DNA of 32,000 nucleotides from Candidatus Saccharimonadota bacterium (GTDB lineage Bacteria > Patescibacteriota > Gracilibacteria > BD1-5 > UBA6164), in NCBI GenBank assembly GCA_004563595.2, contig CP042461.1, positions 600,001-632,000 of the forward strand, written 5' to 3'. Within the stretch, counting starts at the first letter, position 1. Each line of letters starts with the position of its first letter. The translations under genes were made by a program, and so were the position numbers. A model generated the notes under the pieces. It worked only from the letters and a program-made list of their open reading frames with translations, had not been told where the DNA came from and ran no database searches. This document shows positions 1 through 32,000 of this stretch, one piece after another.

Positions 1-555
1 TTCATCTAAGAAAAGTATGTCTGGAGATTCTAATAGTACTTTTGCAAGTGCTACTTTGGTTCTTTGTCATCAACTGATTTCGAGCAATTTTTTATCAAGG
101 AGCTTGAGTATTCACATACCGTTTGCAACACCATGAATTTTATTATTATAATCATTTCATCCAATATTATTAAACTGTTCAAGTAGGGAAGTATAACTAT
201 CTATAAGCTCCATATTTGTAGGATCTTTTGTCATTTGAGATTCAATCGCAATAATTTTATCTTCAAGATCTTGAATGCTATCAAACCCACTGGCTAATTC
301 CTCTCTGACAGTTTTTTCTTCATTATCTGAATAGACTTGATGGAGGTACCCGATACTTATATTTCAAATATTGTCTATATGCCCATCATAGCTTTTCATT
401 TCTCATGTAAGAACCTTTAAAAGAGTTGTTTTTCATGCTCCATTTGGCCCTACCAGACAAATTCTATCGTTTGAATTAATAGTTATATCGATATTCTTTA
501 GTATTTCTACTCAGCTTATTTCTAGTTTATCAATTTTTACTTTGAGATGTTTCAC
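1..555 (-). CDS. ABC-F family ATP-binding protein, N-terminal part (gene continues past the left edge)
   Basis: Minus-strand translation with TGA=Gly gives DRICLVGPNGAGKTTLLKVLTGE (Walker A; the Gly before Lys is TGA, complement of 433-435). It then gives EISGGQRTKVALAKVLLESPDILFLDE (ABC signature plus Walker B). The start is assigned to GTG at 553-555 because there is no in-frame ATG before the upstream TAA/TAG, so it is uncertain. Confidence 0.85.
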
Positions 556-712
556 GATTTTAAATTTATAAATACTTTTACTAAGAGATATCTTACTGAC
601 AACTCTAAAAAAATGAAAATAAAACTTGTAAAATAGATAAAAATCTTTAAAATTATCCGGCACAATCTTAAGTATCTTGTCATATATTTCCTATTAATTT
701 CGGAGTGATGTT

Positions 713-3030: not shown

Positions 3031-3061
3031 AAAAGATAGATTTATAATCTATCTTTTTTAT
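3031..3061. terminator. Hairpin terminator shared by convergent genes
   Basis: The sequence is aaaaagatagatttataatctatctttttt (stem agatagat/atctatct) with flanking A and T runs. The stop codon of the minus-strand gene (3042-3044) lies inside it. Confidence 0.7.
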
Positions 3062-4103
3062 TTTTTGTATATTCTAGCATATATTTATATCAATCATGCA
3101 CTTCAGTAAACAAAGGAGCCCATTTATTCTCTTTTATAGTATAATTAAAGTGAGAGATTTCTTTTCTATTATGGATTCATTTTTCCATTTCTATTGTTCT
3201 TAGCTGCAGTTCTACTTGTACTTCCTCATTTCTATACGGACTAATATACTTGTAATGTATGCTTTGATATCCGTTTGACTTGGGAGATGTTATATAATCC
3301 TTTTTCTTTGTATAGACACACTTTTCTTCAAATGTTTGTATAAATGCATACAAATCAGGCAAATCATCAAATATTATCCTGACTCAAATAGTATCAGATA
3401 GAGTATTAGAATTTTTCCTTTTCATTTTGTTATACAAGCTGAAGTAAGTTTTTTTTCTTATTTGAATTTTTCATATAACTTTTGCTTCAGTTATTAAGTA
3501 ACTCAGATCATTGATTACTTCAATATGATAGGCTCAAGGTATTTCGTAACTCGTTCATTGTCATAATGTTCATTGCTTAGTAATCTTATATTCTTTTGGA
3601 TATATTTTCTTAAAATAAATATCTTGAAAGAATGCTAATAGTCTTGATTCAGACATAGTTAGGCAGGGGATCATATATCAACATGATTTGTAATAATTTT
3701 CAGTATGTGAAACTATTTTTAAATAATTATCTTCTGATAGGAGAACTGTATAATTAATGATTTCTTTGAATAGAAGCAAATCGGGACTCAATCTCATGGT
3801 AGAATAAGTATATTTTTCAAATTCTCATAGAAGCGTATATTCATAGACTTCTATCATCCTTTTAATATTTTTCCTGTCTCTTTTTTTTAGAATTTTACTA
3901 TCTAAATCAATTATTTTAAAGAAGTAGAGAGCGTATAACAATGAAAGTAATATGTAGTATTCATTATCAGAATATTTCTTAAACCTAATAATAACTATTT
4001 TTATAAGTGATAAATAAGAGGGATCTAATTTGCTTGCATAACTTAATAACAAGCGATTAAATTTATTTCGGTACATTTTATTTTTCAGAATGATCGCTTT
4101 CAT
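3042..4103 (-). CDS. RelA/SpoT-domain nucleotidyltransferase (small alarmone synthetase-like), N-terminal unknown domain, paralog 1 (353 aa)
   Basis: Track ORFs 3825-4103 and 3177-3362 share one frame and are joined through in-frame TGA codons, with no TAA/TAG between them. The C-terminal half carries RelA_SpoT motifs: RKKTYFSLYNKMKRK, DTIGVRIIFDDLPDLY, DYITSPKSNGYQSIHYKY, VELQLRTIEME and SHFNYTIK. The stop is TAA at 3042-3044. Confidence 0.8.
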
Positions 4104-4165
4104 TATTGATACTTTAAAAGACTATATTCTATATATAATAAGAGAAAATAGCTTTTATTCAAAGT

Positions 4166-5230
4166 TTATTTCTGAGGTATTTGCTTTTCTTCCATATACT
4201 TGAGCATATATTTATGTCAGTCATGAACTTCTGTAAATAAAGGGGCCCATTTATGCTCTTTGGTTGTATATGTAAAATGAGAAACCTCATTCCTCTTTTG
4301 AATATTATTATCTATTTCTAGAGTTCTTAATTGAAGCTCTACCAGCACTTCCCCATTTCTATATGGATTAATGTATTTATAATGTATACTTTTATAACCA
4401 TTAGGCTTTGGATTGATTATATAGTCTTTTTTCGATATATAAACAAACTTACTTTCAAAAATATTAATAAATTTATATAAATCAGCTTGGCCATTAAAAA
4501 TAATTCGAACTCAAATACTATTAGAAATAGTGTTACTATTTTTTCTTTGCATTTTATTATATAAACTAAAAAACGTCTTTTTTCTTATTTGAGTTTGTCA
4601 TATAACCCATGCTTCTTTCATCAGATAACTGAGATCATTTACAACTTCAATATGGTAACCTCAGGGGATTTCATAACTATTTCATTTTTGCAAATCAGCT
4701 TTTTTAGTTTCCTTATATTCTTTAGGGTATATTTTTTTGAAATATATATCTTGAAAAAAAGGAAGGAGTCTAGATTCGGTCCATGTTAAATATGGAATCA
4801 TATATCAACATGATTTATAGTATCTACTTGTATTTGATATTATTTTCATGTAGTGATCTTCAGATTGAAGAATCGTAGATTTAATAATAACTTTAAAGAG
4901 TAAAAGGTCGTTACTCAGCTCCATAGTACTGTGCACATATTTTTCATATTCTCATCAGAGAGTATATTCATATACCTCAGTCATTTCTTTAATATTTTTC
5001 CTGTCCTTCTTTGACATTATTGGATCATCTAGATCAACAATCTTAAAAAAGTATAAGGCATACTTCAGAGCAAGAACAACAAAATATTCATTATCTGAAT
5101 ATTTTTTAAAACGAATTATAACTATCTTTACCAGTGACAAATAATGGGGAGCTAAAAAGTCCGAATAGGTACTCAGTACCGCATCAAATTTTTTTTTATA
5201 ATATTTATTCTTCACTATAATCTCCTCCAT
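4166..5230 (-). CDS. RelA/SpoT-domain nucleotidyltransferase, paralog 2 (354 aa)
   Basis: Track ORF 4955-5230 ends in two consecutive TGAs (GG) and continues without TAA/TAG to TAA at 4166-4168 (1065 nt). The motifs are RKKTFFSLYNKMQRK, NSIGVRIIF, DYIINPKPNGYKSIHYKY, VELQLRTLE and SHFTYTTKEHKWAPLFTEVHDG. Confidence 0.8.
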
Positions 5231-5311
5231 TATATTTGCTAACTTAAAATATTATCTTAGGTATTTTAGTGAAATAATATTTTTTTTCAATCTTTTTATT
5301 TTTTAGGGGAG

Positions 5312-6397
5312 TTAATTTTTATGCTTTTTTTCCATGAATTGTAACATATATTTATATCAATCATGGACTTCTGTAAATAAAGGGGCCCACTTGTGCTGTT
5401 TAACTGTGTAAGTGAAATGGGAAACCTCACTCCTATTTTGAATATTATTATCCATTTCTAGAGTTCTGAGTTGAAGTTCTACAAGGACTTCACCATTTCT
5501 ATAAGGATTAATATACTTATAATGTATACTTTGATATCCATTTGGTTTGGGGTTTATTATATAATCTTTTTTTGTTATGTGTACAAATTTATTTTCAAAA
5601 ACATAAATAAATTTGTATAAATCATCTTGTTTCTTAAAAATAATTCTGACTCAAATGCTATCTGAAACTGTATCTCTATTTTTCCTTTGCATTTTATTAT
5701 ATAAACTGAAATAAGTTTTTTTTCTTATTTGAGTTTGTGCTAAAACTTGAGCCTCAGTCATGAGATGACTGAGGTCATTTACAACTTCAATATGATACCC
5801 TCATGGTATTTCATAGTTACTTCATTTTTGTAAGTCACATTTTTTAGTTTCTCTATATTCTTTGGGGTATATTTTTTTAAAATATATATCTTGAAAAAAA
5901 GGAAGAAGTCTTGATTCTGTGAGAGTTAAATAGGGAAGCATATATCCACATGATTTGAAATACTTTTCTTTATTCCATATAGCCCCCATATTTTTATCTT
6001 CTCATAGCAATGCCATGTATTTATCTTCTCACAACAATGCCGAATATTTAAGAATAATATTAAATAACAAAAAATCTTTATCAATATTCATAAGAGTATA
6101 AATATATTTTTCAAAATATCAATTCATAGGGTAAGTATATATTTGAATTACCTTTTTTACCTTTTTTCTATCTCTTTTTGTGATAATAGGGTTACGATAA
6201 TCAATAACTTTAAAGAAACATAAAATGTACTTGAGGGCAAATAAAATAAAATATTCATTATTTGAATATTTCTTAAAGCGGATAATAACGATTTTTAATT
6301 GTGTTAAGTTATTTACACTTAATTCATCTCAATATTTTAGCAATATTGAGTCAAATTTTTTTTGGTATGATTTATTTTTTAATATTATCCCCTCCAT
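5312..6397 (-). CDS. RelA/SpoT-domain nucleotidyltransferase, paralog 3 (361 aa, carries an in-frame 9-aa duplication)
   Basis: The gene runs from ATG at 6395-6397 (MEGIILKNKSYQKKF) to TAA at 5312-5314, 1086 nt, intact under code 25. The motifs are RKKTYFSLYNKMQRK, DSIGVRIIF, DYIINPKPNGYQSIHYKY and VELQLRTLEM. It contains ALLGEDKYM/ALLGEDKNM, produced by a 27-nt tandem duplication at 5988-6041. Confidence 0.75.
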
Positions 6398-6566
6398 AAT
6401 ATTTATTTGATGTTTTAAAATATACTCTCATATCATTCTACTGATAATTACCTTTTTTTCAATAGCTAATCTTTCTTAGGTTATATTATGATAGATAACT
6501 GACCTCAATTTTTGCTTTTTTTATCCATCTGATTATATTGGTGTTATATATTTATAATTATTTTAT

Positions 6567-9500
6567 ATGACTACAGATTCTCTTTTTAAAACAGAATATT
6601 CTCGATTAAATACTGGTCAAAAACAAGCTGTAGAGGCTTTATTTTGACCAGTTATGGTTGTTGCTTGACCATGAACATGAAAAACTCAGATTATTTGACT
6701 GAGAACTGCTAATATAATTTTAAAAGCATGAGTTGAACCACGTAATATTCTTATTACTACTTTTACGGAAGCATGAGTGATAGCGATTAGAAAGAGATTG
6801 GTTAAGTTTTTATGAAATGAGGCTTATAAAGTGAATGTTTCTACTATTCATTCTCTTGCTCAGGACATTATTAAAACTTTCCCTGAAAAGTTTTTAGAAT
6901 ACAAAGCTGGGAGTCCTATTGATGATGTTGATGCTTTTGAGCTTATTAAGGAAATAATTGATAAACTATCATGAGAAAAACAATTAGATAAACTTATTAC
7001 GTCATATGATAAATATTTTTATCTCAGAGATATAAAATCACGTATTTGAAATCTAAAAGGGGAGTGAGTAAGTATTTCAAGATTAAAAATACTTATAGAA
7101 AGGCAAAGACTAAAGTATGAAGAAGAATTACTAGAAATTAAACCGACACTTAAAAAATATGAAACAACAAGGATAAAACAAGAAACACATATTCTAAAAC
7201 TTGAGGAATTATGTCTTGTATTTGCTGAATATAATAAAGAATTACGAGCTAAATCTCAATATGATTTTAATGACATGATTAATTTTGTACTTGAGAAATT
7301 TAAAGAAGATGAAGAATTAAAGTTTCATTATGCAGAAAAATTCCAATTTATTATGCTAGATGAGTATCAAGATACAAATAATGCGCAAAATACTATCATT
7401 GATATGATTTTATCAGTATCAGAGTGAGCTCCTAATATCATGGTTGTTTGAGATGATGATCAATCTATTTATCGTTTCCAATGAGCGAATATTGAGAATA
7501 TGCTTGATTTTTCTACTCATTATTCTGATACACAATTTGTAGTATTAGAAGATAATTATCGATCTACTTCATGAATATTAGATTTATGAACTCAGTTAAT
7601 AGTAAATAATGAAGAAAGACTGACGAATAAAATCGAAACTATTGATAAAAAGCTTGTTTCAAGCTGAATACTTAAGTCTAATACAAATAAACCAGTTTTA
7701 TTTCGTGCAAAGAGTGATATGGAAGAAAAATCTTATGTTATCAATAATATAAGACAATTACTAGAACAATGAACTCTTCCTGAAGAAATTGCTATAATTG
7801 TAAGATGAAATAGAGAAGTTGAACAATTTACTCAACTGCTTCTTCAAAACAATATTGAAGCAGAATCAAAATTAAAAACTGATATACTAAAATCTGAATA
7901 TATTATTTTTATATTAAATTACTTAACAGTTATTAATAATCCATATTCAGATGAAAATATATTAATAGATCTGATGAGAAATGATCTCGTTTGATTGCAA
8001 CAGGTTGATATTTTAAGAATAAATAGAGCTCTCTATGTCTTAAATTATTCAAGAAAAATTAATATGACTATGATTGACTTTCTCCTTGATGAGAGCAACC
8101 TTGAAGAATTACACCTTTCTGATAAAGCTTCACTTATTAATTTCCGTGATAATCTTCTCGCTTTTGGATCTGAATTAGCATCAAAGAGTTTTATAGCATT
8201 TTTCAATGATTTTATTGAAAAAACTTGAATATTACTTTCTATTGAAGCGAATGGGAGCTTTGATGATCTTGAAGATATATTCACATTTTTTAATAAGATT
8301 AAATCATGGAATATCTCAGATAAAAAATTTAATACATCTAAACTTCTTTCAAAAATTGATTTACATAAAACTTATAACTATTCAATTTCAAGACAGGTAC
8401 TAAAAAAATGAAAGAATTGAGTACAAGTTTTAACAGCGCATAGCTCAAAATGACTCGAATACGATGTAGTTTTTGTTCCAGGGCTCTTCACCTGAAACTG
8501 GGAATGAAAAAGAGTAATTGATAGATTAAAACTCCCTGAATGAATTGCTTGAGATTGACTTCAAACTTCAAATTTTCAACAAATTGAAGAAGATAGAAGG
8601 CTTTTCTTTGTCGCAGTAACTAGGGCAAAAGAAAATTTATTTCTCAGTTTTCCTGCTTGAATAGGTACAAAACCTTTATTACAATCAGTGTTTATAGAGG
8701 AAATAAAATGATGTTATAATGATTTTACAGATCTTTCAACTCTTGATCAAAACGGTATTTACGAAATCATCTCTCATGAGCTTATCAATAACTTAATTAC
8801 ATACTCTGACCTAGAGTTTAGTTATATAGAGGAGTTTTTAGATACCTATAAACTTTCCCCAAGTGATCTCAATGTATTTCTTGAAGATCCTATTTCATTT
8901 TTACATAGAGTAGTCTTTAAGTATCCCTTTGTTGATAATAAATTTACTATTTTTGGAAAAGTATATCATAGAACTTTAGAATTATTCTACTTGAAATATA
9001 AGAGTGATCAGAAACTTCCAGAAAAAGACTATTTATTGACTACTTTCTCAATTTTACTGGGGAAAGAGATATTAATTCCAGATGAATACGAAGAATTAAA
9101 AGAGAAGTGAAAAGAATGACTTCATTGATATTATGATATATGTAAATCAAAAAAATCTGAACCATTAGTCTTGGAATATAGTTTTAGAAGAAAAAATATT
9201 ATTTTTGAGTGAGTTCCACTGACCTGAACAATTGATAAAATCGAAAAAGTTTGAGAATCGGATACAACTGAGAACATTTCCGAGTGACAATGAGCATTAT
9301 TTAAAGATTCAGTTGCTCTTATTGATTATAAGACCTGAAAAGCAAAAACTATAGGTCAGATTAAATGACTGGATAGATACTGAAATAAAAAAGAATGAGA
9401 ATGAAAATACTTTAGACAACTTCTTTTTTATAAACTTCTTTGTGATCTTGACCCAGAATTTGATGCACAATTTGATGTATGATCGCTTGCTATTGATTTT

Positions 9501-9641
9501 GTGGAATGAAAAGAGGGGAATTATAAATATATAGAGGTTGATTATACTCTAGAGGATTACGAAGAGTTTAAGGTGGAGTTACAATGAGCTCGGGTGAAGA
9601 TAAGAGATATTAAATTTTGGAAGGAGGTGTTACATAAATAA
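6567..9641 (+). CDS. UvrD/PcrA/AddA-like superfamily-1 helicase fused to a C-terminal RecB-type PD-(D/E)xK nuclease (1024 aa)
   Basis: Walker A is VMVVAGPGTGKT, with all three Gly as TGA (6666-6680). Other helicase motifs are FIMLDEYQDTN, VVGDDDQSIYRFQGA, EDNYRS, VLTAHSSKGLEYDVVFV and VAVTRAKENL. The C-terminus has LTGTIDKIEK...VALIDYKTGK (nuclease motif). The gene is 3075 nt and ends at TAA 9639-9641. Confidence 0.85.
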
Positions 9642-21297: not shown

Positions 21298-21330
21298 GTC
21301 CTTATAGATAACTATAGGGACTTATTTTAT
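21295..21330 (+). terminator. Rho-independent terminator
   Basis: The stem aagtccttatag pairs with ctatagggactt (one G.U pair) and is followed by attttat. Confidence 0.6.
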
Positions 21331-21350
21331 AATATGGTTAGAAAAACCCA

Positions 21351-21382
21351 GTACTTAACATAATATAACTTATGTTAAGTAC
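21351..21382. other. dif-like Xer recombination site (perfect 13-6-13 palindrome)
   Basis: The sequence is gtACTTAACATAA-TATAAC-TTATGTTAAGTac. The right arm TTATGTTAAGT matches the E. coli XerD arm TTATGTTAAAT at 10 of 11 positions. The left arm ends in CATAA, like the XerC arm. The outline ACTT...AAGT resembles the B. subtilis dif site (ACTTCCTAGAATATATATTATGTAAACT). Confidence 0.6.
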
Positions 21383-21519
21383 ATCTTAACCAATTAAAGG
21401 GATAAGTTGTACTCTCACAAATTACATTAATCACATAAAAATATGTGTTTTAAGATTTTTTAAGCCATTACTGGCTGAAATGCTCATTTTTGTACTTTCA
21501 ATGTATATACACTGCAAAC

Positions 21520-21798
21520 TTAGCTTTTTCAGTATCTCTTGGCTTTTCAATCCAGAAAATCCTTATAAGCTGTTTTTGTAATTTTAACTCAAAACATGTT
21601 TCTAATAATATCATATTTTTCTGAGTTATTTGGGCTTATCGGAATTTGTCAGTATTGTTTTTCAAAATCTTTAATATAATTCCACATAAATCATTCAATC
21701 ACACTTGTCATTTCAAGTGGTCAAATTGACACATGGAATTTTTCTTTTAACATTTGTGTGGTACGCAAATTTATAGTTGCGGATTTATATATTTTCAT
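21520..21798 (-). CDS. Hypothetical small protein (92 aa), possibly a DNA-binding regulator
   Basis: It runs from ATG at 21796-21798 to TAA at 21520-21522 (279 nt) and contains 7 in-frame TGAs. The N-terminus MKIYKSATINLRTTQMLKEKF has a strand-then-helix pattern that loosely resembles ribbon-helix-helix proteins. It is transcribed divergently from the 22023 gene. Confidence 0.4.
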
Positions 21799-21964
21799 AC
21801 ACAAAAGCTATATAATAAAGTCGGATTATGTTAAGGATCGGACCTACTATGATTTAAAAATCATTTAGGATACATATAAATTATATTCAGATTATATTTA
21901 AGTCAAATGTTTTTTAAATGGATTATAGGATAAAAATGAGATTTTCCCTATTTAAAGGGATTTG

Positions 21965-21993
21965 TTGACAACATTAAAATAGAATGATATAAT
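21965..21993 (+). promoter_or_regulatory. Perfect consensus sigma-70 promoter
   Basis: TTGACA (21965-21970), a 17-nt spacer, then TATAAT (21988-21993). AAGGAGG and the ATG at 22023 follow. Confidence 0.7.
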
Positions 21994-22022
21994 ATTATTC
22001 TTAATATATAAGGAGGATAATT

Positions 22023-22244
22023 ATGGATTGAAAAGTATTTTTAGATGCAATTATTGCTATGGCAGGTGCATATTTCTTGTTTTTTTGAATATGGTTAATT
22101 TTTACGACAACAGTAGTGTTCTTTACTATAAGATTTTGGAAATTTATGTTTAATATTAAAGATCAAGTGGTAGTTCATGATTATGTGATATATCAAAAAA
22201 TGAAGAATAATACGATAAAAGATATGAGAGGAATAGTGGAATAA
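22023..22244 (+). CDS. Small membrane protein (73 aa)
   Basis: A strong RBS (aaggagg) precedes it. The translation is MDGKVFLDAIIAMAGAYFLFFGIWLIFTTTVVFFTIRFW, i.e. two hydrophobic helices. The stop is TAA at 22242-22244. Confidence 0.6.
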
Positions 22245-22257
22245 ATAAAGAATGAAT

Positions 22258-22470
22258 AAGAGGGAGAGGAAGGAAAATGGTCCTTCTCTCCCTCAATAGA
22301 GAATTTTATTGAGTTTTGGGTCGGTACAAATTTAAATCAAATATTCCCTACGGGCTACCCTTTAATTTAAATTATGACCTAAAGAAGAAGACTTCCCTCT
22401 TTCTTCGCTACGCTACGAAATAAATTGAAGAATAAAAAACTAGCCCCGTAAAGCGTGGGGCTAGTTTTTT
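22258..22470 (+). ncRNA. Candidate structured non-coding RNA (about 210 nt) ending in a strong terminator; family unknown
   Basis: No ORF longer than 15 codons exists on either strand under code 25. Stem-loops follow one another: gagggagaggaagga/tccttctctccctc (22260-22294); ctcaata/tattgag (22293-22314); ggtc...aatttaaat // atttaaatt..gacc (22319-22379) enclosing ccctacgggctaccc; and gaagaag/tttcttc. The terminator is ctagcccc/ggggctag plus a T-run (22440-22470). The strand is inferred from the T-run, but an A-run on the other side leaves it ambiguous. Confidence 0.35.
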
Positions 22471-22505
22471 ATATAAATTCTTTTCGGAATATTTATCTAT
22501 GCTAT

Positions 22506-22534
22506 TTGACTTTAAATATTTTGTAATGTATAAT
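22506..22534 (+). promoter_or_regulatory. Near-perfect consensus sigma-70 promoter
   Basis: TTGACT (22506-22511), a 17-nt spacer, then TATAAT (22529-22534), 58 nt upstream of the ATG at 22593. Confidence 0.7.
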
Positions 22535-22592
22535 TAAGGTGTTAGTCTTAGTTGATTAACTACCACAACCACAAGTTACGGGAAACAGTATT

Positions 22593-23069: not shown

Positions 23070-23351
23070 TTATAAATTCATAACATTATGAATAGATGCA
23101 TAAAACCAGATAGTCATAATAAGAACACTAAATAGAATCTTGAAATGTCATTCTAGTTTCAGGATTATTAGAAAGATGATCAAAGGAATTATAAGAGTTC
23201 GGAACAAAAAGAAGGGGTAGTCTCAAAGTGTAATAAAATAATTGTACATAGGGTTATACTCCCCTCCTCAGATATTTAAAACAAGCTTGGTGGTAACTGA
23301 ATCTAAAAATGATGTAAAGACTAATCAGATCAATATTAGTTTGTTTTTCAT
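23070..23351 (-). CDS. Phage small integral membrane protein (93 aa)
   Basis: The ATG at 23349-23351 overlaps the end of the Zot-like gene by 16 nt. The protein has three hydrophobic helices (KLILIGLVFTSFL, FFLFRTLIIPLIIFLIIL, ILFSVLIMTIWFYA). Confidence 0.6.
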
Positions 23352-24226
23352 GTGCTTAATAACTTAAGTTTATTAAATAATTTCTTTTTCGGTTTTGCAT
23401 CTTGTGATATTTTAGTGATATACTTATAAATAGATCGTTTTGTGTATATATCAGTTCAAGGACGAATAAGTTCTTTCGTGTTGTAGTCATATACTGGAAA
23501 TATTGGATATAGATTGAGATTCATTCACATAAGAATACCTCATCATACTTGCTCAGCTTTTTCTAAGTCTATTTCTTCTGGGTCTAAGAAGTAAAAGTCT
23601 CTGTACCATCTATAGAATCAGACTCATTTATAGTATTTTCTGTAGTATGTAGCCAGTCTTCTGAATTTCACATCTAATTCCATTGGAGATTGAACTACAC
23701 AGAACATAAGAAGATTAAGTTTTCTTGGTTGATAGATGAAATCTAGGAGTCTTTCATTTTCTCATGAGAAGTTCTTTTTGAAGTTTCTCGGATTAAAATA
23801 TATAGAACATTCATCAAGTACGATATTAAACTTGAGATCCTTTTTTAGGTTTGGGTATTTATTTCTAAACTCTTTTGCATTAAATAGATATTCCTCATAT
23901 TGTTTCCTTGGTTTATGTGTATGTAGCTTCTCAGCATCATCATAGAGGTTTATATATTGGTGATAGTCATAGATGTCATTGAGTATGTTGACGAGATCGT
24001 TATGACTTGATAATTGATAGTCAGTATATCAGGTATAGTAGTTCGTAATATTGATCTCCTTTCAATGTTTACGACCTTTGAGATAAGCAGTGGTATTTTG
24101 TGTTTTTCATGATCAGAACTCTCACATGGTTATAAAGAAACCGTATTTTGTCTTTTTGAAAACGTAATAAGAAAATACTCATAGAAAAGTAGCTATTCAA
24201 AGAAAATATAAGAAAAATTCCAACAT
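23336..24226 (-). CDS. Zot / filamentous-phage pI-like assembly ATPase (296 aa)
   Basis: Walker A is FFITMGEFGSGKTQNTTAYL, with all three Gly as TGA, followed by EINITNYY. Walker B is FNIVLDECSIYFNPRNF. This is the Zot-family P-loop layout. An N-terminal TM helix precedes it. The gene is 891 nt. Confidence 0.75.
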
Positions 24227-24274
24227 ATAAATTTAGTTATGATTTAAATGGTGGCAATTTTTGGTATTTAATAA

Positions 24275-24526
24275 TTATTGAGACTTCATAAATGAAATCA
24301 TTATAGATAGTAAGAATATAAGTATAAGTGAAAGTAGAGAGTTTTGTACTAGGGTTATTGTTGATTGATGAAGAAAATTACTCAAAAATAAACCTATGCT
24401 TATGTTCACATGGTATACGACAAAGGTTAATAAACTAAGTGAGTAATAAGAAACTACTCATACTAGTAATACAAATATAAATATTCTAAAAAAAAGAATA
24501 AAAAACTTAACAACTGCAGTTGTCAT
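24275..24526 (-). CDS. pVI-like small hydrophobic phage protein (83 aa)
   Basis: The ATG at 24524-24526 overlaps the stop of the upstream gene (TAATG). The protein is almost entirely hydrophobic (FFILFFRIFIFVLLVGVV..., LLSLILIFLLSIMISF). It sits between the pIII-like and Zot genes, as gene VI does in Ff phages. Confidence 0.55.
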
Positions 24527-26337
24527 TATTCAGATGGTTTAAAAAATAAAATTAAAGCTCAGACATAAAGTATTCAATATATTAACAAAAACATATAATC
24601 TAATACTGTTTTACTTCAGGGATTTACTTTATATGATTCAAGAGATCAAATCACATTTCATCATGAAGGTATATATTTTTGAAACTCTACTTTATGAACT
24701 ATTCAAAGGAAACAATATTCTTTATTATCCTCAATAGATCAGAAGCTCCCTATGAAATCAAATAATGAGTTCAGGTGTTTTGATAATCATGAGAGTATTA
24801 AGTCTGGTACAAATAGAATTATTTTAAATGCTCGGTTATCAAAAAGTGTAGCAAGTTTATACTCTACATGAAATATATTATTTACGGTATATAAGAACCT
24901 TCAATCAGTATCAAACATTTCACATGTTCATAATTCTTGGTCTTTATAAGTAATACTTCAATATGTTGCTAGGGGTTGTAATAATAAATTATCAGATCAA
25001 GAAAATGATACTGGGCTCCCTTTTAATTTTGAGGCTAATTCTAGTATTTCATTATTCAGGTCTTCAAATGTATATTTCTCTCTTATTTCAAAGTTTGTTT
25101 TTTCATTCCCTATATTATCTAAGCTTCAAGTATAGGTTTCTCAATCAACAGTGATTTCATCAGTATCAAGATTAGAACATACTTCCCTTTCTATAATTTG
25201 TGTTTCTTTGCTTCAGAAGTCTATATTAAATATTTCATTTTCGGTAAACCATGCAGGTATAAATTCTATACAAACGTCTTCCATAGTTTCAAAGTGATAC
25301 TCTTTTCAATATTCTAGGAGTTCCCTTTCTATGGAACTGCTTCAATCACAGCTAATGATATTAAAAGCATTTCAAGTTCATGTGAGATTTACGTAATCAA
25401 TTCAGTAATCAGAGTGTAATTTTAATTGAGGATCATTGTTCCCTATTATATCAAATGAATTGAAGGTAAAGCTTGTTCAAGTACTTGATAAGCTTCAAGT
25501 AAATCACTCTATATCTTCTGCGTTATAGAGTCAGATAGATTCGTTCCCTCATCATCATCTATTATATTGAAAATATTGTCAGTAACTGAGACTATAATCA
25601 TCTATAGTTGTGTGAGATGGTTGATATGAATAACTCAGGTTATATGGTGTATTGATGTATGCTGTCTGACAGGATTGATTTGAAGATCATCAAGATAACT
25701 CTATATGAGGAACTAATGAATTAGTATCAATATCATAAGAATTATTATTATAATATGTAGGAACAATATTATCTGTTATAACAAATCAATTACAAGATGA
25801 AGTACCACTACAAATTAAACTATACACATGTGTAGTCCTATTAATTTTTGCCCAATCATAATTACTAGAATTTGTAAACTTAAGATAAATATAATCATTG
25901 TCAGAACCGAAATACATATATCAAGCTCAATTTGAATTTGTATTATATCTTGATTCAGAATTAATAATATTTCAATCAAAATCCGTCATCTGTAATATTA
26001 AACTTCCCCAAAAAGTATTAAGCCATTGATTTGAATAAGTAATATTTAAAATAAATTCATTATCCAGATCATGAATCATATTTAAAGTACGATTTGAATC
26101 CATAATATCATTAAAATAAACATGACTTCAATCTTTCCAGAGAAAAGTTCAACTTGAATCATAAGCACAAACTTGTTTTGAATTAGTACAATTGGAATCT
26201 GTATATCAAGTTACTATAGAATAATTATCACTTGATAATAATTGAGTAGCACTTGTATAATCTCAATGGGTATTTGATATTCAGAAAACACTCAATGCTC
26301 CAAAGAATAGAAATACTGATAGTATTATTTTTTTCAT
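24526..26337 (-). CDS. pIII-like adsorption/minor coat protein (603 aa)
   Basis: It has a signal peptide (MKKIILSVFLFFGALSVFG) and a long Asn/Ser/Thr/Cys-rich ectodomain with Gly-rich linkers (ELSGGSSNQS, YNRGGGGNES; the Gly are TGA). A C-terminal membrane anchor (YMFLLIYGILYVGALILFF) follows. The gene is 1812 nt with no TAA/TAG. Confidence 0.65.
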
Positions 26338-26555
26338 AGTATTTTTTCTCAAGATGTAAGACTGAAACCAAAGTTAAAAGATAGGATGAATATTTTTATT
26401 AAGGTTTTCATTAGTAAGATTCCTAGGATTGTTATGATGAGAATATAGCTAAAAGTATCCTGATTAATATAGTATGAGTCGTCATATATTTTTATTAATT
26501 CAAGATGATTTTCAGTTAATGTTCATGTTCAAACGAGGTGTATATCTCAAGTCAT
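26325..26555 (-). CDS. Phage small membrane protein (76 aa)
   Basis: It runs from ATG at 26553-26555 to TAA at 26325-26327 and overlaps the pIII-like start. It has one TM helix (FSYILIITILGILLMKTLIKIFIL). Confidence 0.5.
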
Positions 26556-26557
26556 AT

Positions 26558-26725
26558 TTATCTTTTATAGTATAATTTGTAGAAGAAACCGAGTATGAGT
26601 CATACGGGTGCAGCACTTCATATAATCGCAATTATGCTAAAAATAAACACCACAAAAAATGATATGTATATATCAAATCATAAAGCTATATTTGCAAATA
26701 GTGGTCCCATATTCAGTAATTAACA
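26558..26725 (-). CDS. Phage small hydrophobic protein (55 aa), pVII/pIX-like by position
   Basis: It runs from ATG at 26723-26725 to TAA at 26558-26560 (168 nt). The translation is MLITEYGTIFANIALGFDIYISFFVVFIFSIIAIIGSAAPVGLILGFFYKLYYKR. Confidence 0.45.
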
Positions 26726-26734
26726 TAATTAAGG

Positions 26735-26764
26735 TGTAAGGGATTTATTTTACTAAATCCCTTA
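26735..26764 (-). promoter_or_regulatory. Hairpin immediately downstream of the coat-like gene (possible attenuator/terminator)
   Basis: The stem is gtaagggattta / taaatcccttat, 12 bp with a 6-nt loop. There is no clean U-run on the minus-strand transcript. Confidence 0.4.
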
Positions 26765-26782
26765 TGCTCTAACTAGGTTAGA

Positions 26783-27040
26783 CTATGATCTTCAACCTTT
26801 TTTTACAAGGAGCATAATAACACCAATTACGATCATTATTCATAATGCAACCCCTAAATAAGGAAGTACGAATAAGAAACCAGCCCACAGATTTGATAAA
26901 GCATTATCTACTCATGTATCAACAACTGTATTGTCAGATGCATCAAAAGTTACTTTACCACCTGTATATGTTAAGGCAGATGTATATAGTCCTAGTACAA
27001 AAGCTGAGATAGTAGCAAACATTCCGCTAATAAGTCCCAT
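26783..27040 (-). CDS. Major coat protein-like (pVIII-like), 85 aa precursor
   Basis: The translation is MGLISGMFATISAFVLGLYTSALTYTGG|KVTFDASDNTVVDTGVDNALSNLWAGFLFVLPYLGVALGIMIVIGVIMLLVKKGGRS. It has a hydrophobic leader, an acidic N-terminal segment, a hydrophobic core and a basic C-terminus, which is the canonical inovirus coat layout. The gene is 258 nt. Confidence 0.6.
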
Positions 27041-27063
27041 TCTCTTAAACTTAAGAAATAAAA

Positions 27064-27088
27064 AAAAGTAGAGTATTACTCTACTTTT
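27064..27088. terminator. A/T-flanked hairpin (bidirectional terminator-like)
   Basis: The sequence is aaaagtagag-tatta-ctctactttt. Confidence 0.5.
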
Positions 27089-27238
27089 TACATAAAAGAA
27101 TCGCCAAAAACTTCTATGTAAAAAGTAAAGGGCGATTTAGTTTATTTAAGGCAGTGATTATTTTTACTTAGAAAATCACTAAAAACTAATCGAATTTTTT
27201 ATGTATATGTATTGGGATCTATCCGGAAACCCAGTAAG

Positions 27239-27445
27239 TTAAATAAATATGATTGCAGTAATTAAAAGAGGTATTACTACAAAGATAAGTACTATATTTG
27301 TAAACTTTAGAGAGTTGTAAATATCATCTAGTTGATCTAGCTTATTTATAACTCTTTTTTGTAGTCTAATATGAACAAAAGTTTTAACTATTTCTCAAAA
27401 TATATGAGATAGGTCTATTTTGTCCTCTTGTGTTTTCTTAGGCAT
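27239..27445 (-). CDS. Phage small protein with a C-terminal TM helix (68 aa)
   Basis: It runs from ATG at 27443-27445 to TAA at 27239-27241. The translation is MPKKTQEDKIDLSHIFGEIVKTF...NIVLIFVVIPLLITAIIFI. Confidence 0.5.
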
Positions 27446-27456
27446 TTAGTTTTTTA

Positions 27457-27840
27457 TTAAAAAGGTATGTCTTCAATAGTGATTTCTTCTTCTGCTTTCT
27501 GTTGTAACGGTTTTTTACTCGCTCATGCGAATTCTACATTTTGAACGTTGATAGATGTGAAATAGCTTTTATTTCCATCTTCTTTATCAAAAGTAGAGTT
27601 TTCAAGTTCTCATTCTAGGTATACCTTTGTTCATTTTGGTATATATTTCTCAAAGAAGTCAGCTCTTTGTCCCCAAATAGTTAAGTTTATGAAAGTTGTA
27701 GTTTTTACCTCTTCCCCATCTCTATTTTTGTATTTTTTGTTTATAGCAATAACGTTTTTTAAGTATTTATTATCGTTGCTTGTTGTTTTTACTTCACTGT
27801 CTTTGACTATATTTCAAATCAAACATATTCTATTTAACAT
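27457..27840 (-). CDS. ssb: Single-stranded DNA-binding protein, bacterial OB-fold type (127 aa)
   Basis: The translation reads MLNRICLIGNIVKDSEVKTTSNDNKYLKNVIAINKKYKNRDGEEVKTTTFINLTIWGQRADFFEKYIPKGTKVYLEGELENSTF and ends with the canonical acidic tail EEEITIEDIPF. Confidence 0.85.
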
Positions 27841-27944
27841 ATGGTTTTAAAATTAAAAAAAAATAATATATAGCGCTTATATGCCTATATATTATTCATT
27901 TTTATTCGTAAGTCAAATGTATTTTAAATGTAATTTAAATATAC

Positions 27945-28115
27945 TTAACTGTTATTTTTGTAGTTTTGTTTGTATAATTGGATTAATGCGTTTAATTTTT
28001 GTGATCTATTATCAATTTTCATTCCATGAAAATCAACGTCTAGTTCAAAGAATTCTTTTGCTATCTCAGCATCAATAGCGATAGTTGTAAATTTCGTTGG
28101 CGATTTAGTAGTCAT
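27945..28115 (-). CDS. Ribbon-helix-helix-like small regulator (56 aa)
   Basis: The translation is MTTKSPTKFTTIAIDAEIAKEFFELDVDFHGMKIDNRSQKLNALIQLYKQNY. It shows a beta-strand (FTTIAID) followed by two helices, as in Arc/CopG. It is the first gene of the minus-strand phage operon and sits next to a divergent intergenic region. Confidence 0.5.
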   Translation of the reverse strand: MTTKSPTKFTTIAIDAEIAKEFFELDVDFHGMKIDNRSQKLNALIQLYKQNYKNNS

Positions 28116-28340
28116 ACAATATGTATTTAAATAATATTTAGTTATGTAAGTTTATATTATATGAATATTAAATGAATGTCAAATAAAAAGAGTGTTTCAT
28201 AATTTTAATAGATAATCCTATTCCTGATTCTAAAACATATTACAAATAAGTCTAGATAAAATTATAAAAATTTCAAAATATTAAGGTCTTGTTAATGTCT
28301 TATACGTATAATATTTATACTTATTTCATTTTAAAAATAT

Positions 28341-28955
28341 ATGCATAGAAAAATCGAAGCGATTAGAGGTCTAATTAATAATATAGAGAAATTAGAAGAT
28401 TTAGATTTTGACAGTCTTGATAGAATTAAGAAAAAGAGTAATATGGTATTATTAAAAGTTTTTTGAGATGAATCTGCTCATATAAATGGCTTAAAGAATG
28501 CTAATTTTTCAGTTATTTCTTTTACAATTTGAAGAGAAACTCCAATAGGGAGAAAAATAGAGGCTTGGAATAAAGGAAAGAAGAAATTTATTAATACTTT
28601 AGAAGTTTGTATTGATGAGCTAGAATTAGATATATGAGCTAGTGTAATGGAAAAAACACCAATAAAAGAAAGAAAAATGAGTGTTAATATTAAGAATTTT
28701 AATTGAAACTTATCCTGAGAAAATTATTGAACTCAAGAATTTATAAATAGTGGTATTGATGATATAATAGATCAAATTAATGAAAAAAATATTGAATTTA
28801 AAACAGAAATTATAAAATTATTAGAAGAAATTAAATCTGTAAAAGAGCCAGAAGTTAAGTCTAAAAAGTTTTTAGAGGTTATTAATCTTTTGTGATCAGG
28901 TGCTTCAATTAATTCATATATAATGGCTTTAGGTGCTTTTGTAGCAGGTATATAA
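28341..28955 (+). CDS. Hypothetical protein (204 aa) with a hydrophobic C-terminus; first gene of the opposite-strand cassette
   Basis: It runs from ATG 28341 to TAA 28953-28955 (615 nt) with 7 in-frame TGAs. It has coiled-coil-like segments, and its C-terminus SINSYIMALGAFVAGI is hydrophobic. No motif recognised. Confidence 0.55.
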
Positions 28956-29032
28956 TAAAATTTATAGTGATAACACTATAGATTTTATTTGAAAGGTAGA
29001 AGCAATATTCGTAATTGAAATTAATAAATTAT

Positions 29033-30190
29033 ATGAAAAAAAAACATAGAATTAAAATTAAAGCTCAAATACAGGAATTCTCAAGTAGTTTTGTAGAAAC
29101 TTTTATAAAATTACTTATGTCTTTTGAAAGAGTGCAACCAAATATTAGAGAAGCCGTACCTGATATTTTTAATATAGCTTTGGAGGATATTGCAGTTGAT
29201 TCTTATTTCTCTGAAAATAGAAAACATGTAATGATTCTTTTTAAAGAAAGGAAAAATAAGAGTTTTAATTTTAATCTTACAAAAGGTAATGTCTTTGATG
29301 AACTAGATGAAACAGGTCAGTGGAAAAGACCAAATATACCGGTTTGTTTTAATTTTAAAGGTTGAACTGGTTTTATGCAAGAAATAACTATATCTGGTAT
29401 GAAACCTTTCAATATAGAAGGTGATAAAGTAAAAATTACATTCTCAGATTTTAAATTTAATTTGCCAAATGGAGATAATAAAAAGATATCTTTTGGGTAC
29501 ATTTTTTCTTATAGTCTTTTTAAAGATGAAGTTTTAAGTAATACAGAAAACTATGTTGAAAATTTAATTTATTCTTTTTGGGACTATTATAGACTCTATA
29601 AACATAAACTTAGTTCTTCAATTGATGAAAAAAAATATAAAAAATACCAGAAATGAATTTTAGAAGATATGGAAAGATTATTTTTTAATGAAGAAATAAA
29701 AGAACAAGAAATAGATAACTTTATAACAGAAAATCCAATTATTTTAGAAAGGTGCTTATTTCTTACTCCAATATTACCACAACAGATATTAAATAACCTT
29801 GTGAAAGAAAACTTTGATCAAGATATGATACCTGATTTAATATGTCAAGATATTAATGACAGTTGGATAATTGTTGATTATAAAAGAGCAAAAAGAATAA
29901 TTAAGAAAAATGATACAGCTCGTGCAGATATAAAATCTGAGGTAAATGAATTAAAAATCCAACTAAAAAACTATAGAGAATATTTTAATGAAGAAAAACA
30001 TAGGAACAATTTTGCGAAGATCACAGGATATAAAATTCCTTCCAAACCAAAAACAAAATGACTTATAGGGTATGTTTTAGATTCTGAGAGAAAAATATTT
30101 GAAGATTCTATTGAAGATAACCCAAATCGGATTGATATAATTACTTATGATGAACTTTATAAGAGATTTAAAAAGTTTTATGAGTCTTAA
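29033..30190 (+). CDS. Shedu-like (DUF4263 / SduA C-terminal) PD-(D/E)xK nuclease with a novel N-terminal domain (385 aa)
   Basis: Track ORFs 29015-29365, 29375-29656 and 29669-30061 share one frame and are joined by single TGA codons. The C-terminal half reads FITENPIILERCLF...MIPDLICQDINDSWIIVDYKRAKRIIKK...KIQLKNYREYF...KGLIGYVLDSE...RIDIITYDELYKRF. This is the D...(D/E)xK core, the Q..Y motif and the terminal TYD-hL that I recall as typical of DUF4263. The start could instead be TTG at 29015. Confidence 0.6.
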
Positions 30191-30212
30191 ATAATATACT
30201 TATATAAATAAA

Positions 30213-30246
30213 AAAAGGCTAGACTTTCATCTAACCTTTTTTTTAA
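30213..30246. terminator. Hairpin terminator between convergent genes
   Basis: The stem aaggctaga pairs with tctaacctt (one mismatch), with an A-run before and a T-run after. Confidence 0.6.
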
Positions 30247-30419
30247 CCTTTAAAGGTTATCTTGTGGACTATTCTATCCACTCAAAATATATCTCTTGGA
30301 TTATCTCATTTTATGAGATCTCATTTCTTTAGCACTGTGGTTAAATCAAATGAACAATAGTTTTGCTCATCGTAGTGTGTTCAGTCGGCATCAACTGACT
30401 CTATTGCATATTCGTACAT
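30243..30419 (-). CDS. Hypothetical small protein (58 aa)
   Basis: It runs from ATG at 30417-30419 to TAA at 30243-30245 (177 nt) with 4 in-frame TGAs. The translation starts MYEYAIESVDADGTHYDEQNYCSFDL. It lies directly downstream of the structured inverted-repeat region. Confidence 0.4.
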
Positions 30420-30435
30420 AATATAAAAATTGTAA

Positions 30436-30517
30436 AAGGACCCTAGCAGGAAGATCACCACAATCGTACACCTGCTAAGGTCCTTAAATAAGGTGATCTA
30501 TTTAAATACGATTGTGG
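30436..30517. repeat. Compound inverted-repeat element (15-bp stem, with a 20-nt loop that is itself complementary to two flanking boxes)
   Basis: aaggaccctagcagg (30436-30450) pairs with cctgctaaggtcctt (30471-30485). Within the loop, gatcacc (30453-59) and ccacaatcgta (30458-68) are complementary to ggtgatc (30492-98) and tacgattgtgg (30507-17) respectively. Confidence 0.7.
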
Positions 30518-30713
30518 TATATTAGTTATAGCTATAAATAAATTATTTGCAAATTGTTTTTAAATGTAAAATAAATGACGTCACTGGAGTATAGCATAAT
30601 AGTTTTTATAAAAGCAAAAGTTTTTTCGACTTTCTTGGCTTTGTGTAGGTGATATATCGATATTATAAGTACAAATAAACTATTGATTATAATGAAGTGA
30701 TATTAACAGGGCA

Positions 30714-30857
30714 TTAATATTGAGGATTAAAGTAATAATTTCTTTGATAGGTTAATATTACTGAGTCGAACTTTTCGTCTCATGGGAGGAATTCTTGAGT
30801 GGTATATTGTTTATAGCTTTCTAATGTAAGATTTGGTACTTGTGTTTTTAAAGACAT
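30714..30857 (-). CDS. Hypothetical small protein (47 aa)
   Basis: It runs from ATG at 30855-30857 to TAA at 30714-30716. The translation is MSLKTQVPNLTLESYKQYTTQEFLPGDEKFDSVILTYQRNYYFNPQY. It is supported only as an ORF in the phage operon. Confidence 0.35.
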
Positions 30858-30858
30858 G

Positions 30859-30960
30859 TTATAAATTAAATAATACTTTAAATTTTTCTATTGAATCAAC
30901 TCCATTCATTCATAGATACCACCCTATTGATGTATAGAATAGTATATTTATCAAGGTCAT
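30859..30960 (-). CDS. Possible very small ORF (33 aa)
   Basis: It runs from ATG at 30958-30960 to TAA at 30859-30861, which abuts the next ATG. The translation is MTLINILFYTSIGWYLGMNGVDSIEKFKVLFNL. Support is weak. Confidence 0.2.
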
Positions 30961-31043
30961 TAATGTACTAGACGTAAAGTCACTTATGAATTCTCAGAAT
31001 TGTATTATGAGAAACTCTCAATAAGTTCATATGTCTGGATCGC

Positions 31044-32000
31044 TTAAGCACTTATCACATTTCACTTTTTTTCATAGGATTTCTTTCATAATTTAATTTT
31101 AGGTTTTATAGTATATTTCTTTAAGATTCTATTAATTATAGATGCTTCAAGTCATTGTTCTTGTAAATATATGATTAAATTTTCTAGTAGATCATATCAA
31201 TTAAATAGTTTTCTATTCACAAGTTTGAATTGTTTCACATTATATCATTTACTTTTAGCATATTCATATTGATATAAGCTAGTTCTATCTCTTATAGTCT
31301 CTTTTGATTCTTTTTGAACTCATAGAACGGTATCAAAGAGTCAAACATATCATGTATTATTTTGAATAGTTTTTAAATATCAGTGTGACCTAGAGAGATA
31401 ATCTTTTGGAATATGTCAGTGCTGTAAATAATAACTTTTTAGATCAAATTTTACGTTAGTATATTTTTTGAGCTCTATATCTTTGTAATGTAACTCGTGT
31501 TCTGTATATCTATTGAAGTATTTTGTAAATATTCTTTGAATAGGTTTATTTCTATTCTCTAATATATCAGAGATGGAGAAATCTGTTATTCTTTTACATT
31601 CTTCGGGTCTGAGTTCTAGTTCAATTCTTCTTACATCATGATTATGTATGAGGTGAGGATAGAGGAATCATTTTTGTTTTTTCCAGGTATCAAGTATTTT
31701 ATCATAAACTCTAAATAGAAATTTACGGTTTGAATTACTTTGTGGATTATTGATATAGTAGGTTTGACTAAACTCAGGGTGTTTTTTGTCATTTCATATT
31801 TCAGAAAAGAAATTTACGTCTTTGAGGAGTTGGGATTTAATCTTTTTAATATCATAGGGTAAATCTATAGCAATATCTAACCTGTGTAAATCTGTTTTAT
31901 CATCTGTGAAAAATGCTTCATAGAATTCTTTTATGGAGAAATCTAGTTTGTCGCTCTTTTCTAAAACAAAAAAAGTAGAATAAAAAACTACTTTATCTTT
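31044..32000 (-). CDS. Rolling-circle replication initiator, Rep_trans family (RstA / pT181 RepC-like); the N-terminus lies beyond the window
   Basis: The frame is open from the window edge to TAA at 31044-31046 (957 nt). The motifs are DLHRLDIAIDLPYD, then NRKFLFRVYDKILDTWKKQ and HDVRRIELELRPEECKRI. This matches the RhDhAhD ... hRhYDK ... hRhEhEhR pattern of replication initiation factor proteins. Confidence 0.7.

Follow-up and report, generated by a model that had tools for sequence, protein, structure and literature searches.

What purpose is served by three RelA/SpoT-domain genes lying head to tail in a genome that encodes a further, larger enzyme of the same family? The question is raised by genes A, B and C, which occupy positions 3042 to 6397 of the window, a 32,000-nucleotide stretch (positions 600,001 to 632,000 of contig CP042461.1) of the closed, 1,343,103-bp genome of Candidatus Gracilibacteria bacterium 28_42_T64. 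The trio is already in the literature, in a single sentence that is not followed by any analysis: the genome paper mentions "three relA/spoT domain proteins encoded sequentially", attributes them to the response to nutrient limitation, and describes a fourth, larger multi-domain RelA/SpoT homologue (RSH) elsewhere in the same genome. Our literature searches returned no papers on Gracilibacteria and ppGpp, and nothing relevant on the Candidate Phyla Radiation (CPR) and the stringent response. A first-pass annotation of the window read the trio as an immunity or conflict array, possibly related to the toxic small alarmone synthetases (toxSASs), a reading that the attribution in the genome paper already counters. 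We find that the observation behind that annotation is real and was accurately read, and that its immunity interpretation is not supported. The reading that we favour, with some reservation, is that A, B and C arose by lineage-specific tandem duplication within an RSH subfamily that is restricted to Gracilibacteria and descends from long Rel, and that they act as accessory, ribosome-independent (p)ppGpp synthetases.

The genes are legible only in the appropriate genetic code. As judged from alignments and codon usage, the window (G+C content about 27%) uses code 25, in which TGA encodes Gly, because the TGA codons of ThyA and FtsH align to Gly and never to Trp, and because TGA is the commonest Gly codon. 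E. coli has Gly opposite 7 of the 10 aligned TGA positions in ThyA and opposite 16 of 23 in FtsH, with Trp opposite none in either protein, and in the window TGA is the most used Gly codon (183 occurrences vs 103 for GGN). Open reading frames (ORFs) of at least 100 aa sum to 39 kb with TGA as a sense codon vs 6 kb in the standard code. The head-to-tail frames of A, B and C are likewise open only with TGA as sense, confirming that they are three intact tandem genes, each encoding a single polypeptide under code 25. The accompanying remark that each would appear in the standard code as a 91-92-aa first ORF holds for C (92 aa) and B (91 aa) but fails for A, which has an earlier TGA.

All three genes lie on the minus strand and share one architecture, composed of an N-terminal all-helical domain, junction helices, the synthetase (SYNTH) domain and a terminal helix: A at 5312-6397 (361 aa; QFR39152), B at 4166-5230 (354 aa; QFR39151) and C at 3042-4103 (353 aa; QFR39150). 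In GenBank, A begins at an upstream ATG at 6436 (374 aa); an alignment of 33 homologues favours the ATG at 6397 (MEGIIL..., 361 aa). The same three proteins are present in an independent draft assembly, and the trio is not an assembly artefact because the copies differ by 30-38%. Profile searches recovered the RelA_SpoT domain (PF04607, gathering cutoff 27 bits) in A (aa 225-320, 5438-5725, 71.7 bits), B (aa 216-311, 4298-4585, 64.1 bits) and C (aa 216-309, 3177-3458, 71.0 bits), all on the minus strand, as had been anticipated. No Pfam domain other than PF04607 was matched in the three proteins, and PF13328 and PF01966 in particular gave no match. The motifs quoted in the first-pass annotation are all found, namely RKKT[YF]FSLYNKMxRK, I-G-VRIIF with the Gly encoded by TGA, DYIxxPKxNGYxSIHYKY, ELQLRT and KWAPLFTEVHDG, and the catalytic halves are indeed more alike than the N-terminal halves (69-82% vs 53-68% identity).

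The catalytic center is conserved well beyond this genome. Across 33 family members, R, K, S and K of RxKxxxSxxxK, the Asp of DxxGxR, KKDYIxxPKxNGYxSxH, ExQxRT and HxxY[TS] are invariant or nearly so. A and C carry every catalytic and substrate motif, and B all of them but the Asp of DxxGxR; with this exception, the claim of an intact catalytic core stands.

By profile comparison, A, B and C resemble a long RSH more than a small alarmone synthetase (SAS). The long-RSH model TIGR00691, to whose positions 158-338 aa 160-346 align, scores them at 72-86 bits, vs 29-33 bits for the YjbM SAS model NF053588, and with a hidden Markov model built on the C-terminal half, the median score is 62-64 bits for long RSHs vs 47 bits for SASs. 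The best sequence matches in the PDB are E. coli RelA (the top match), Bacillus Rel and Mycobacterium tuberculosis Rel, and these alignments begin at the junction motif FQDIYFKKIYPKEY, which corresponds to LEDYCFRYLHPTEY of RelA, from RelA residue 198. This HD-SYNTH junction (LEDxxFxxLxPxxY followed by helices) precedes SYNTH in all three proteins and is specific to long RSHs, being absent from SASs. A full-length profile-profile alignment to the long RSHs of Patescibacteria pairs positions 1-374 with 1-382 at 99.4% probability, and takes in the last helix, where KWxxLFxEVHxGY corresponds to the WxxxLxEWQ that in Rel leads to the TGS domain.

The predicted structure points in the same direction. 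The full-length AlphaFold2 model of A, built from 33 family sequences (predicted local distance difference test score, pLDDT, 87.3; predicted template modelling score, pTM, 0.83), is superimposed by Foldseek over 347-367 of its 374 columns on the N-terminal catalytic fragments of Rel, RelA and SpoT (24io, 1vj7, 8acu, 7oiw and 5xnx; E 5e-10 to 1e-8, TMt 0.60-0.64), while for RelP and RelQ the match extends over no more than about 170-200 columns. All of the PDB sequence matches and of the best 50 fold matches are housekeeping Rel, RelA, SpoT, RelP or RelQ enzymes, and none is a toxSAS structure. Long RSHs in the broad sense of Atkinson et al. (2011), which have HD and SYNTH with an optional C-terminal region, share this junction and the order and register of the alignment; for an HD or pseudo-HD domain before SYNTH, sequence gave no signal, and the fold comparison gave a top ranking of RSH hydrolases that is not significant. 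Two ready-made classes are nevertheless not appropriate. A classical long RSH would have a regulatory C-terminal region, but A, B and C stop about 35 aa beyond SYNTH with one last helix, and none of the TGS, helical, ZFD/CC or ACT/RRM domains was detected in them, PF04607 being the only domain matched. Nor are they SASs of the RelP/RelQ type, considering their length of 353-361 aa, the extra folded domain, and the scores of 29-33 bits against the NF053588 cutoff of 320.

The remaining part to be explained is the N-terminal domain (aa 1-165; 5903-6397 in A, minus strand), which lacks an HD motif, as had been noted. The AlphaFold2 model of the isolated domain (pLDDT 87.9) consists of eight helices. 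When it was compared with the PDB, the five best TM-scores all belonged to HD-superfamily proteins, i.e. two RelH small alarmone hydrolases (7qod, 0.48; 7qoc, 0.46), the small alarmone hydrolases (SAHs) of Leptospira (7qoe, 0.45) and Pseudomonas (6yvc, 0.39), and an HD-GYP domain (0.36), with every non-HD match at 0.34 or below; it is the rank pattern alone that is informative in these comparisons. In the viral library BFVD, a phage "(p)ppGpp synthase/hydrolase" ranks second and a "putative hydrolase" fourth, neither being individually significant. No invariant His or Asp was found in the N-terminal 165 aa across 27 aligned sequences, nor does A retain a conserved one. The residues that are conserved (K42, E48, F62, K117, Y146, P155, T158, E161 and S162) do not match the HD motifs. 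Since the nearest folds are RSH-type HD hydrolases and no His or Asp is conserved, the domain is probably a heavily decayed HD fold, a pseudo-hydrolase like that of RelA, as far as a structural model can tell. We reject the bifunctional synthetase/hydrolase that GenBank names for A and B, because the HP His, the HD dyad, the ED motif, and the Asp and Asn of KxxDRxxN are all missing; the label is unjustified whether the domain is a decayed HD fold or not.

Several results weigh against the derivation from Rel and the function that we propose, and are best considered together. When the N-terminal profile of 158-165 aa was aligned by hhalign with the long RSHs of Patescibacteria and with the HD region of Rel from Gracilibacteria (108 proteins), the E-values were 0.62 and 0.68. 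Foldseek of the isolated N-terminal model against the PDB and BFVD gave no individually significant match, the best having an E-value of 1.6 and a TM-score below 0.5. The SYNTH half is not closer to the Rel of Gracilibacteria than to other long RSHs of Patescibacteria (medians of 61.8 vs 63.7 bits), and we rejected the expectation that it would be. We infer the substrate (GDP/GTP, ATP or tRNA) from motif conservation only. Finally, the N-terminal domain could be an unrelated helical domain that has replaced HD.

This last alternative deserves separate consideration. It supposes that the N-terminal 165 aa are a lineage-specific helical domain in place of HD, providing a new input such as binding of a ligand, ABC-F or the ribosome, and we regard it as doubtful, though not far-fetched. 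The domain shows no sequence signal to any HD profile, its conserved residues differ from the HD motifs, and the fold matches, with TM-scores of 0.48 or less, are individually non-significant. In a search of 1.84 billion representatives, the N-terminal profile retrieved only its own family of about 350 aa together with standard-code-truncated fragments of that family, and no homologue joined the domain to other domains. On the other hand, it has the position and the length of the HD domain of Rel, nearly all columns of the full-length model align to Rel N-terminal structures, and the best TM-scores come from RSH-type HD hydrolases in two independent libraries. Strong divergence of HD after duplication also has precedents in RelA, RshB and rickRel[hS] (PMC3153485). 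We therefore retain the decayed HD fold as the more plausible origin of the domain.

The genomic context is informative about the role of the family. We compared the locus with 16 Gracilibacteria loci from GTDB species representatives and 2 from the closest relatives, 18 in total, covering about 6-7 kb on either side, and found exactly one family member at each. An ABC-F gene (ABC_tran-ABC_tran_Xtn-ABC_tran) directly follows on the same strand at 12 of the 18 (L001-L006, L010, L011, L014, L016, L018 and L019), and the two genes, where called, are about 60-70 nt apart. At three more (L008, L009 and L012) it lies about 4 kb downstream, and the gene upstream is the same divergent helicase as in the window, where a UvrD-type helicase with a PD-(D/E)XK nuclease domain is encoded at 6558-9641 on the plus strand. 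The ABC-F ATPase gene of the window, which in most relatives directly follows the single-copy orthologue, is represented by its 5' part (1-690, minus strand) and lies 2.3 kb from the array, past genes for a bactofilin-like membrane protein and a sigma-70-family protein. Since the helicase and ABC-F neighbors are kept across relatives, this is a conserved chromosomal locus with a single-copy orthologue, expanded only in this lineage. Patchy spread on mobile elements or defence islands is rejected as well, the family occurring as a single copy in conserved ABC-F/helicase synteny at 18 loci. From the sequence searches, the family is restricted to Gracilibacteria. The first-pass annotation preferred immunity to a housekeeping role; these conserved single-copy orthologues at 18 Gracilibacteria loci are largely what it had itself named as evidence to the contrary.

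Substitution patterns do not indicate a conflict either. The ratio of nonsynonymous to synonymous substitution (dN/dS) among the three paralogues ranges from 0.16 to 0.19 for the N-terminal half and from 0.07 to 0.09 for the catalytic one; these values are rough because dS is saturated, which adds to the reservations collected above. Their identity of 62-70%, together with the saturated dS and a dN/dS of 0.07-0.19, indicates that the duplications are old and that purifying selection acts on the copies, diversifying selection showing no gene-wide sign. The diversifying selection that had been suspected is thus not supported in either half.

These data bear directly on the reading of A, B and C as toxSAS-type fused toxin-antitoxins or anti-phage sensors, in which SYNTH would be the toxin, acting by tRNA pyrophosphorylation or (pp)pApp formation and held in check in cis by the N-terminal domain until triggered, and triplication would diversify the triggers. 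The SYNTH domain does match the PADLOC candidate PDC-S33 (E = 1e-16) and phrog_4773 (E = 6e-11) at the domain level, but both matches are limited to the generic SYNTH core, and neither the PDB sequence matches nor the best 50 fold matches include a toxSAS structure. Divergence is faster in the N-terminal than in the catalytic half; in both halves, dN/dS lies far below 1. Each copy is preceded by a promoter-like element of its own, and the window also contains a possible inovirus-like element and a gene resembling Shedu, though at least 17 kb away; the adjacent genes are the paralogues, the helicase and the bactofilin-like membrane protein, with no small antitoxin gene among them, and the 18 other genomes carry one copy beside ABC-F/helicase genes rather than in variable islands. 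The single terminal helix about 35 aa past SYNTH leaves neither a pZFD nor a YXXY element. Truncated N-terminal regions of RelA or Rel that lack the hydrolase or the C-terminal domains are expected to inhibit growth on over-expression, and toxicity of an overexpressed Rel-like N-terminal region without hydrolase and C-terminal domains would accordingly be compatible with a toxin. Taken together, the full-length match to the Rel N-terminal region, the conserved single-copy synteny, the low dN/dS indicating purifying selection, and the lack of an antitoxin gene and a C-terminal pZFD mean that a conflict or immunity array of the toxSAS/CapRel type is not supported, and we consider it very unlikely. 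No new defence system is revealed by the locus.

Copy B requires a different consideration. Its codon 237 is AAT (4520-4522, minus strand), encoding Asn, whereas GAT, encoding Asp, occupies this position in A, in C and in 30 further members of the family; the D237N change is the only motif difference in B, is found in 0 of the 30 others, and is present both in the finished genome and in the independent draft assembly. The position aligns with the Asp of DVRAVRIV in E. coli RelA. We take the DxxGxR Asp to be the residue that binds Mg in the synthetase site, corresponding to D264 of RelSeq. Having lost it, B may be inactive or regulatory, although the A-B dN/dS of 0.085 in the SYNTH half implies that B is strongly constrained.

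B is also mosaic in structure. On the downstream side of about residue 151, it has 108 informative sites in common with A and 44 with C, whereas upstream it has 72 in common with C and 58 with A; Fisher's test gives p of about 1e-5 for a breakpoint that was picked after viewing the data. Such a pattern fits the formation of B, in the middle, through unequal crossing-over between A and C; A/B gene conversion is another explanation.

It is conceivable that at least one copy is a non-catalytic pseudoenzyme, serving as a regulatory subunit or decoy in an array that drifts toward redundancy or loss. In addition to the substitution in B alone of an otherwise invariant catalytic Asp, confirmed by two independent assemblies, A and C each change one or two nearly invariant residues of the N-terminal domain, and, in a loop of that domain modelled with low confidence, A contains an in-frame 27-nt tandem duplication (5987-6040, minus strand; ALLGEDKYM/ALLGEDKNM, aa 120-137). 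The 9-aa duplication is missing from B, C and every other family member. However, the three frames are intact, all other catalytic motifs are kept, and the A-B dN/dS in SYNTH speaks against pseudogenisation; as an account of the array, we find this reading unlikely. It can hold for B alongside the explanation that we favour, in which the three genes are accessory synthetases.

In that explanation, a long Rel enzyme would have given rise to a subfamily in which a decayed hydrolase-like domain is followed by the junction helices, by SYNTH in complete form and by the pre-TGS helix, and this subfamily would have dropped all of the ribosome-sensing C-terminal domains. Removal of Rel/RelA's C-terminal domains relieves ribosome dependence and autoinhibition. 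Because this removal frees Rel/RelA from the ribosome and the hydrolase residues have been lost, we predict a ribosome-independent synthetase, comparable in this to RelP/RelQ or to artificial N-terminal fragments of Rel. The product, as we infer it, would be (p)ppGpp made from ATP and GDP/GTP without ribosome sensing; control would be exerted mainly through expression from the genes' own promoters, perhaps also allosterically through the pseudo-HD domain, and hydrolysis would be left to the canonical bifunctional Rel encoded elsewhere in the genome.

Such a Rel is common in the group. Long Rel proteins of about 745 aa, carrying PF02824, PF13328 and other domains, are widespread in Gracilibacteria, and HP, LHDxxEDT and KLADRxHNM are invariant in 108 of them, which keep all HD and SYNTH motifs. 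The long RSH of the present genome, known from the genome paper, was not among the best 120 matches to a Gracilibacteria Rel. At one locus (L015), the family member (5956-7098, plus strand) adjoins a divergently oriented full-length Rel of 768 aa (3554-5857, minus strand) with an intact HD domain. This Rel has a unique RFKQYI in place of the RFKDYI found in 107 of the 108; given that conservation, we rejected RFKQ as a sign of general SpoT-like specialisation.

A more speculative extension would make A, B and C an unclassified RSH subfamily that works with the downstream ABC-F protein, the pseudo-HD domain being a regulatory interface that couples ribosome or energy status to alarmone synthesis, with a three-member set in this genome that includes a catalytically dead, regulatory B. 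We consider this rather unlikely at present.

As for expression, each copy appears, from sequence features, to have its own 5' region. A promoter-like TTGAAA-16-TAGAAT lies upstream of A (6435-6462, minus strand), and equivalent elements precede B (5263-5290) and C (4135-4162) on the same strand, such that TTGAAA-16-TAnAAT is found at the equivalent upstream position in all three copies. The signal is one of positional conservation only; a promoter/terminator consensus scan gave no enrichment over shuffled sequence in this AT-rich window. At the other end of the array, a perfect AT-rich 9-bp hairpin, AGATAGATT-TAT-AATCTATCT, flanked by A and T runs (3034-3054), overlaps the stop codon of C and also the convergent bactofilin-like gene at its end. 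Its AT content is too high for the consensus terminator scan, and it looks like a bidirectional terminator that closes the array.

Elsewhere in the window, the region from about 23336 to 32000 may be an integrated filamentous-phage-like element, judging from its gene content. It includes, on the minus strand, genes for a P-loop protein that weakly matches M13 protein I/Zot (23336-24232; phrog_1675, E = 4e-5), for a secreted protein of 616 aa anchored in the membrane at its C terminus (24526-26373), for a small membrane protein (26783-27136) and for a single-stranded DNA-binding protein (27457-27846), as well as an unassigned 318-aa ORF that runs past the window end (31044-32000). A 385-aa ORF on the plus strand (29015-30190) matches the C-terminal domain of Shedu SduA (PF14082) at 27.8 bits against a cutoff of 27, and its product may be a Shedu-like defence nuclease. 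A segment of about 1.2 kb (about 21300-22560) contains no ORF of at least 100 aa in any frame, even with TGA as sense, and no Rfam or tRNA match; tRNA and Rfam scans of the entire window likewise gave no matches.

The public record of this family is affected by the choice of translation table. In public databases, many family proteins hold Trp at TGA positions through translation with code 4, e.g. DSIWVRIIF for DSIGVRIIF, and other members are kept as fragments of 57-92 aa through code 11. To judge from these entries, mistranslation with code 4 and code 11 hides the family in public protein sets and corrupts its conserved Gly columns. GenBank labels A and B as bifunctional synthetase/hydrolases and C as a "hypothetical protein". 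The present analysis corrects this annotation, in which A and B are called bifunctional without hydrolase residues.

What is new here, beyond the mis-annotation and mistranslation, is the Rel N-terminal architecture with a probable pseudo-hydrolase, the restriction to Gracilibacteria with linkage to ABC-F, and the Asp-less mosaic copy B. For alarmone signalling in small-genome, episymbiotic CPR bacteria, the results suggest a canonical bifunctional Rel accompanied by an accessory, Rel-derived synthetase that has neither the C-terminal domains nor a working hydrolase. The conserved ABC-F pairing and the Asp-less copy B are specific leads.

How do these proteins compare with known systems? Like CapRel and other toxSASs, they are single polypeptides that join a RelA_SpoT-type nucleotidyltransferase core to a second domain. 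In CapRel, however, an N-terminal toxSYNTH domain precedes a C-terminal pZFD that serves as antitoxin and sensor with a YXXY switch, and other toxSASs have a separate antitoxin gene (PMC11782079). The extra domain of A, B and C is N-terminal and helical, confirming the opposite domain order that the first-pass annotation had given for CapRel (PMC11782079); they also lack a pZFD and an antitoxin gene, and reside in conserved housekeeping synteny under purifying selection.

RelP and RelQ share the SYNTH core and the catalytic motifs, and presumably also the likely role, namely accessory, ribosome-independent (p)ppGpp synthesis beside a bifunctional Rel. They are, however, single-domain proteins of about 210-250 aa, whereas A, B and C add a domain of about 165 aa and the junction helices of long RSHs.

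RelA and RshB resemble the trio as duplicates of Rel in which the synthetase is intact, the catalytic residues of HD are lost, and a bifunctional Rel is still present in the genome. RelA differs in having TGS, helical, ZFD and ACT/RRM domains and in being activated by deacylated tRNA on the ribosome, while A, B and C stop right after SYNTH. Their KKD motif before YI also resembles, as we take it, the Rel-type RxKD rather than the EXDD of RelA. The split between synthetase and hydrolase roles in RelA and SpoT is analogous to that proposed between A, B and C and the bifunctional Rel.

The closest published precedent, by analogy, is rickRel[hS] of Rickettsiales, described as a SYNTH domain with a "very divergent" HD domain and no C-terminal domains, present in multiple copies in host-dependent bacteria with small genomes beside a full-length Rel (PMC3153485); secondary loss of domains is also known for some long RSHs from the general RSH classification (PMC7229694). 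The likeness, taken from the description, is one of architecture only: SYNTH follows a divergent HD domain, the C-terminal domains are missing, and several copies coexist. rickRel[hS] belongs to another phylum and presumably has an independent origin, and the Gracilibacteria family differs in being normally single-copy and ABC-F-linked, with an N-terminal domain that has diverged beyond sequence detection. The tandem synthetases of 28_42_T64 would thus parallel both the RelA/SpoT pair of Proteobacteria and rickRel[hS] of Rickettsiales, in what is apparently an independent event.

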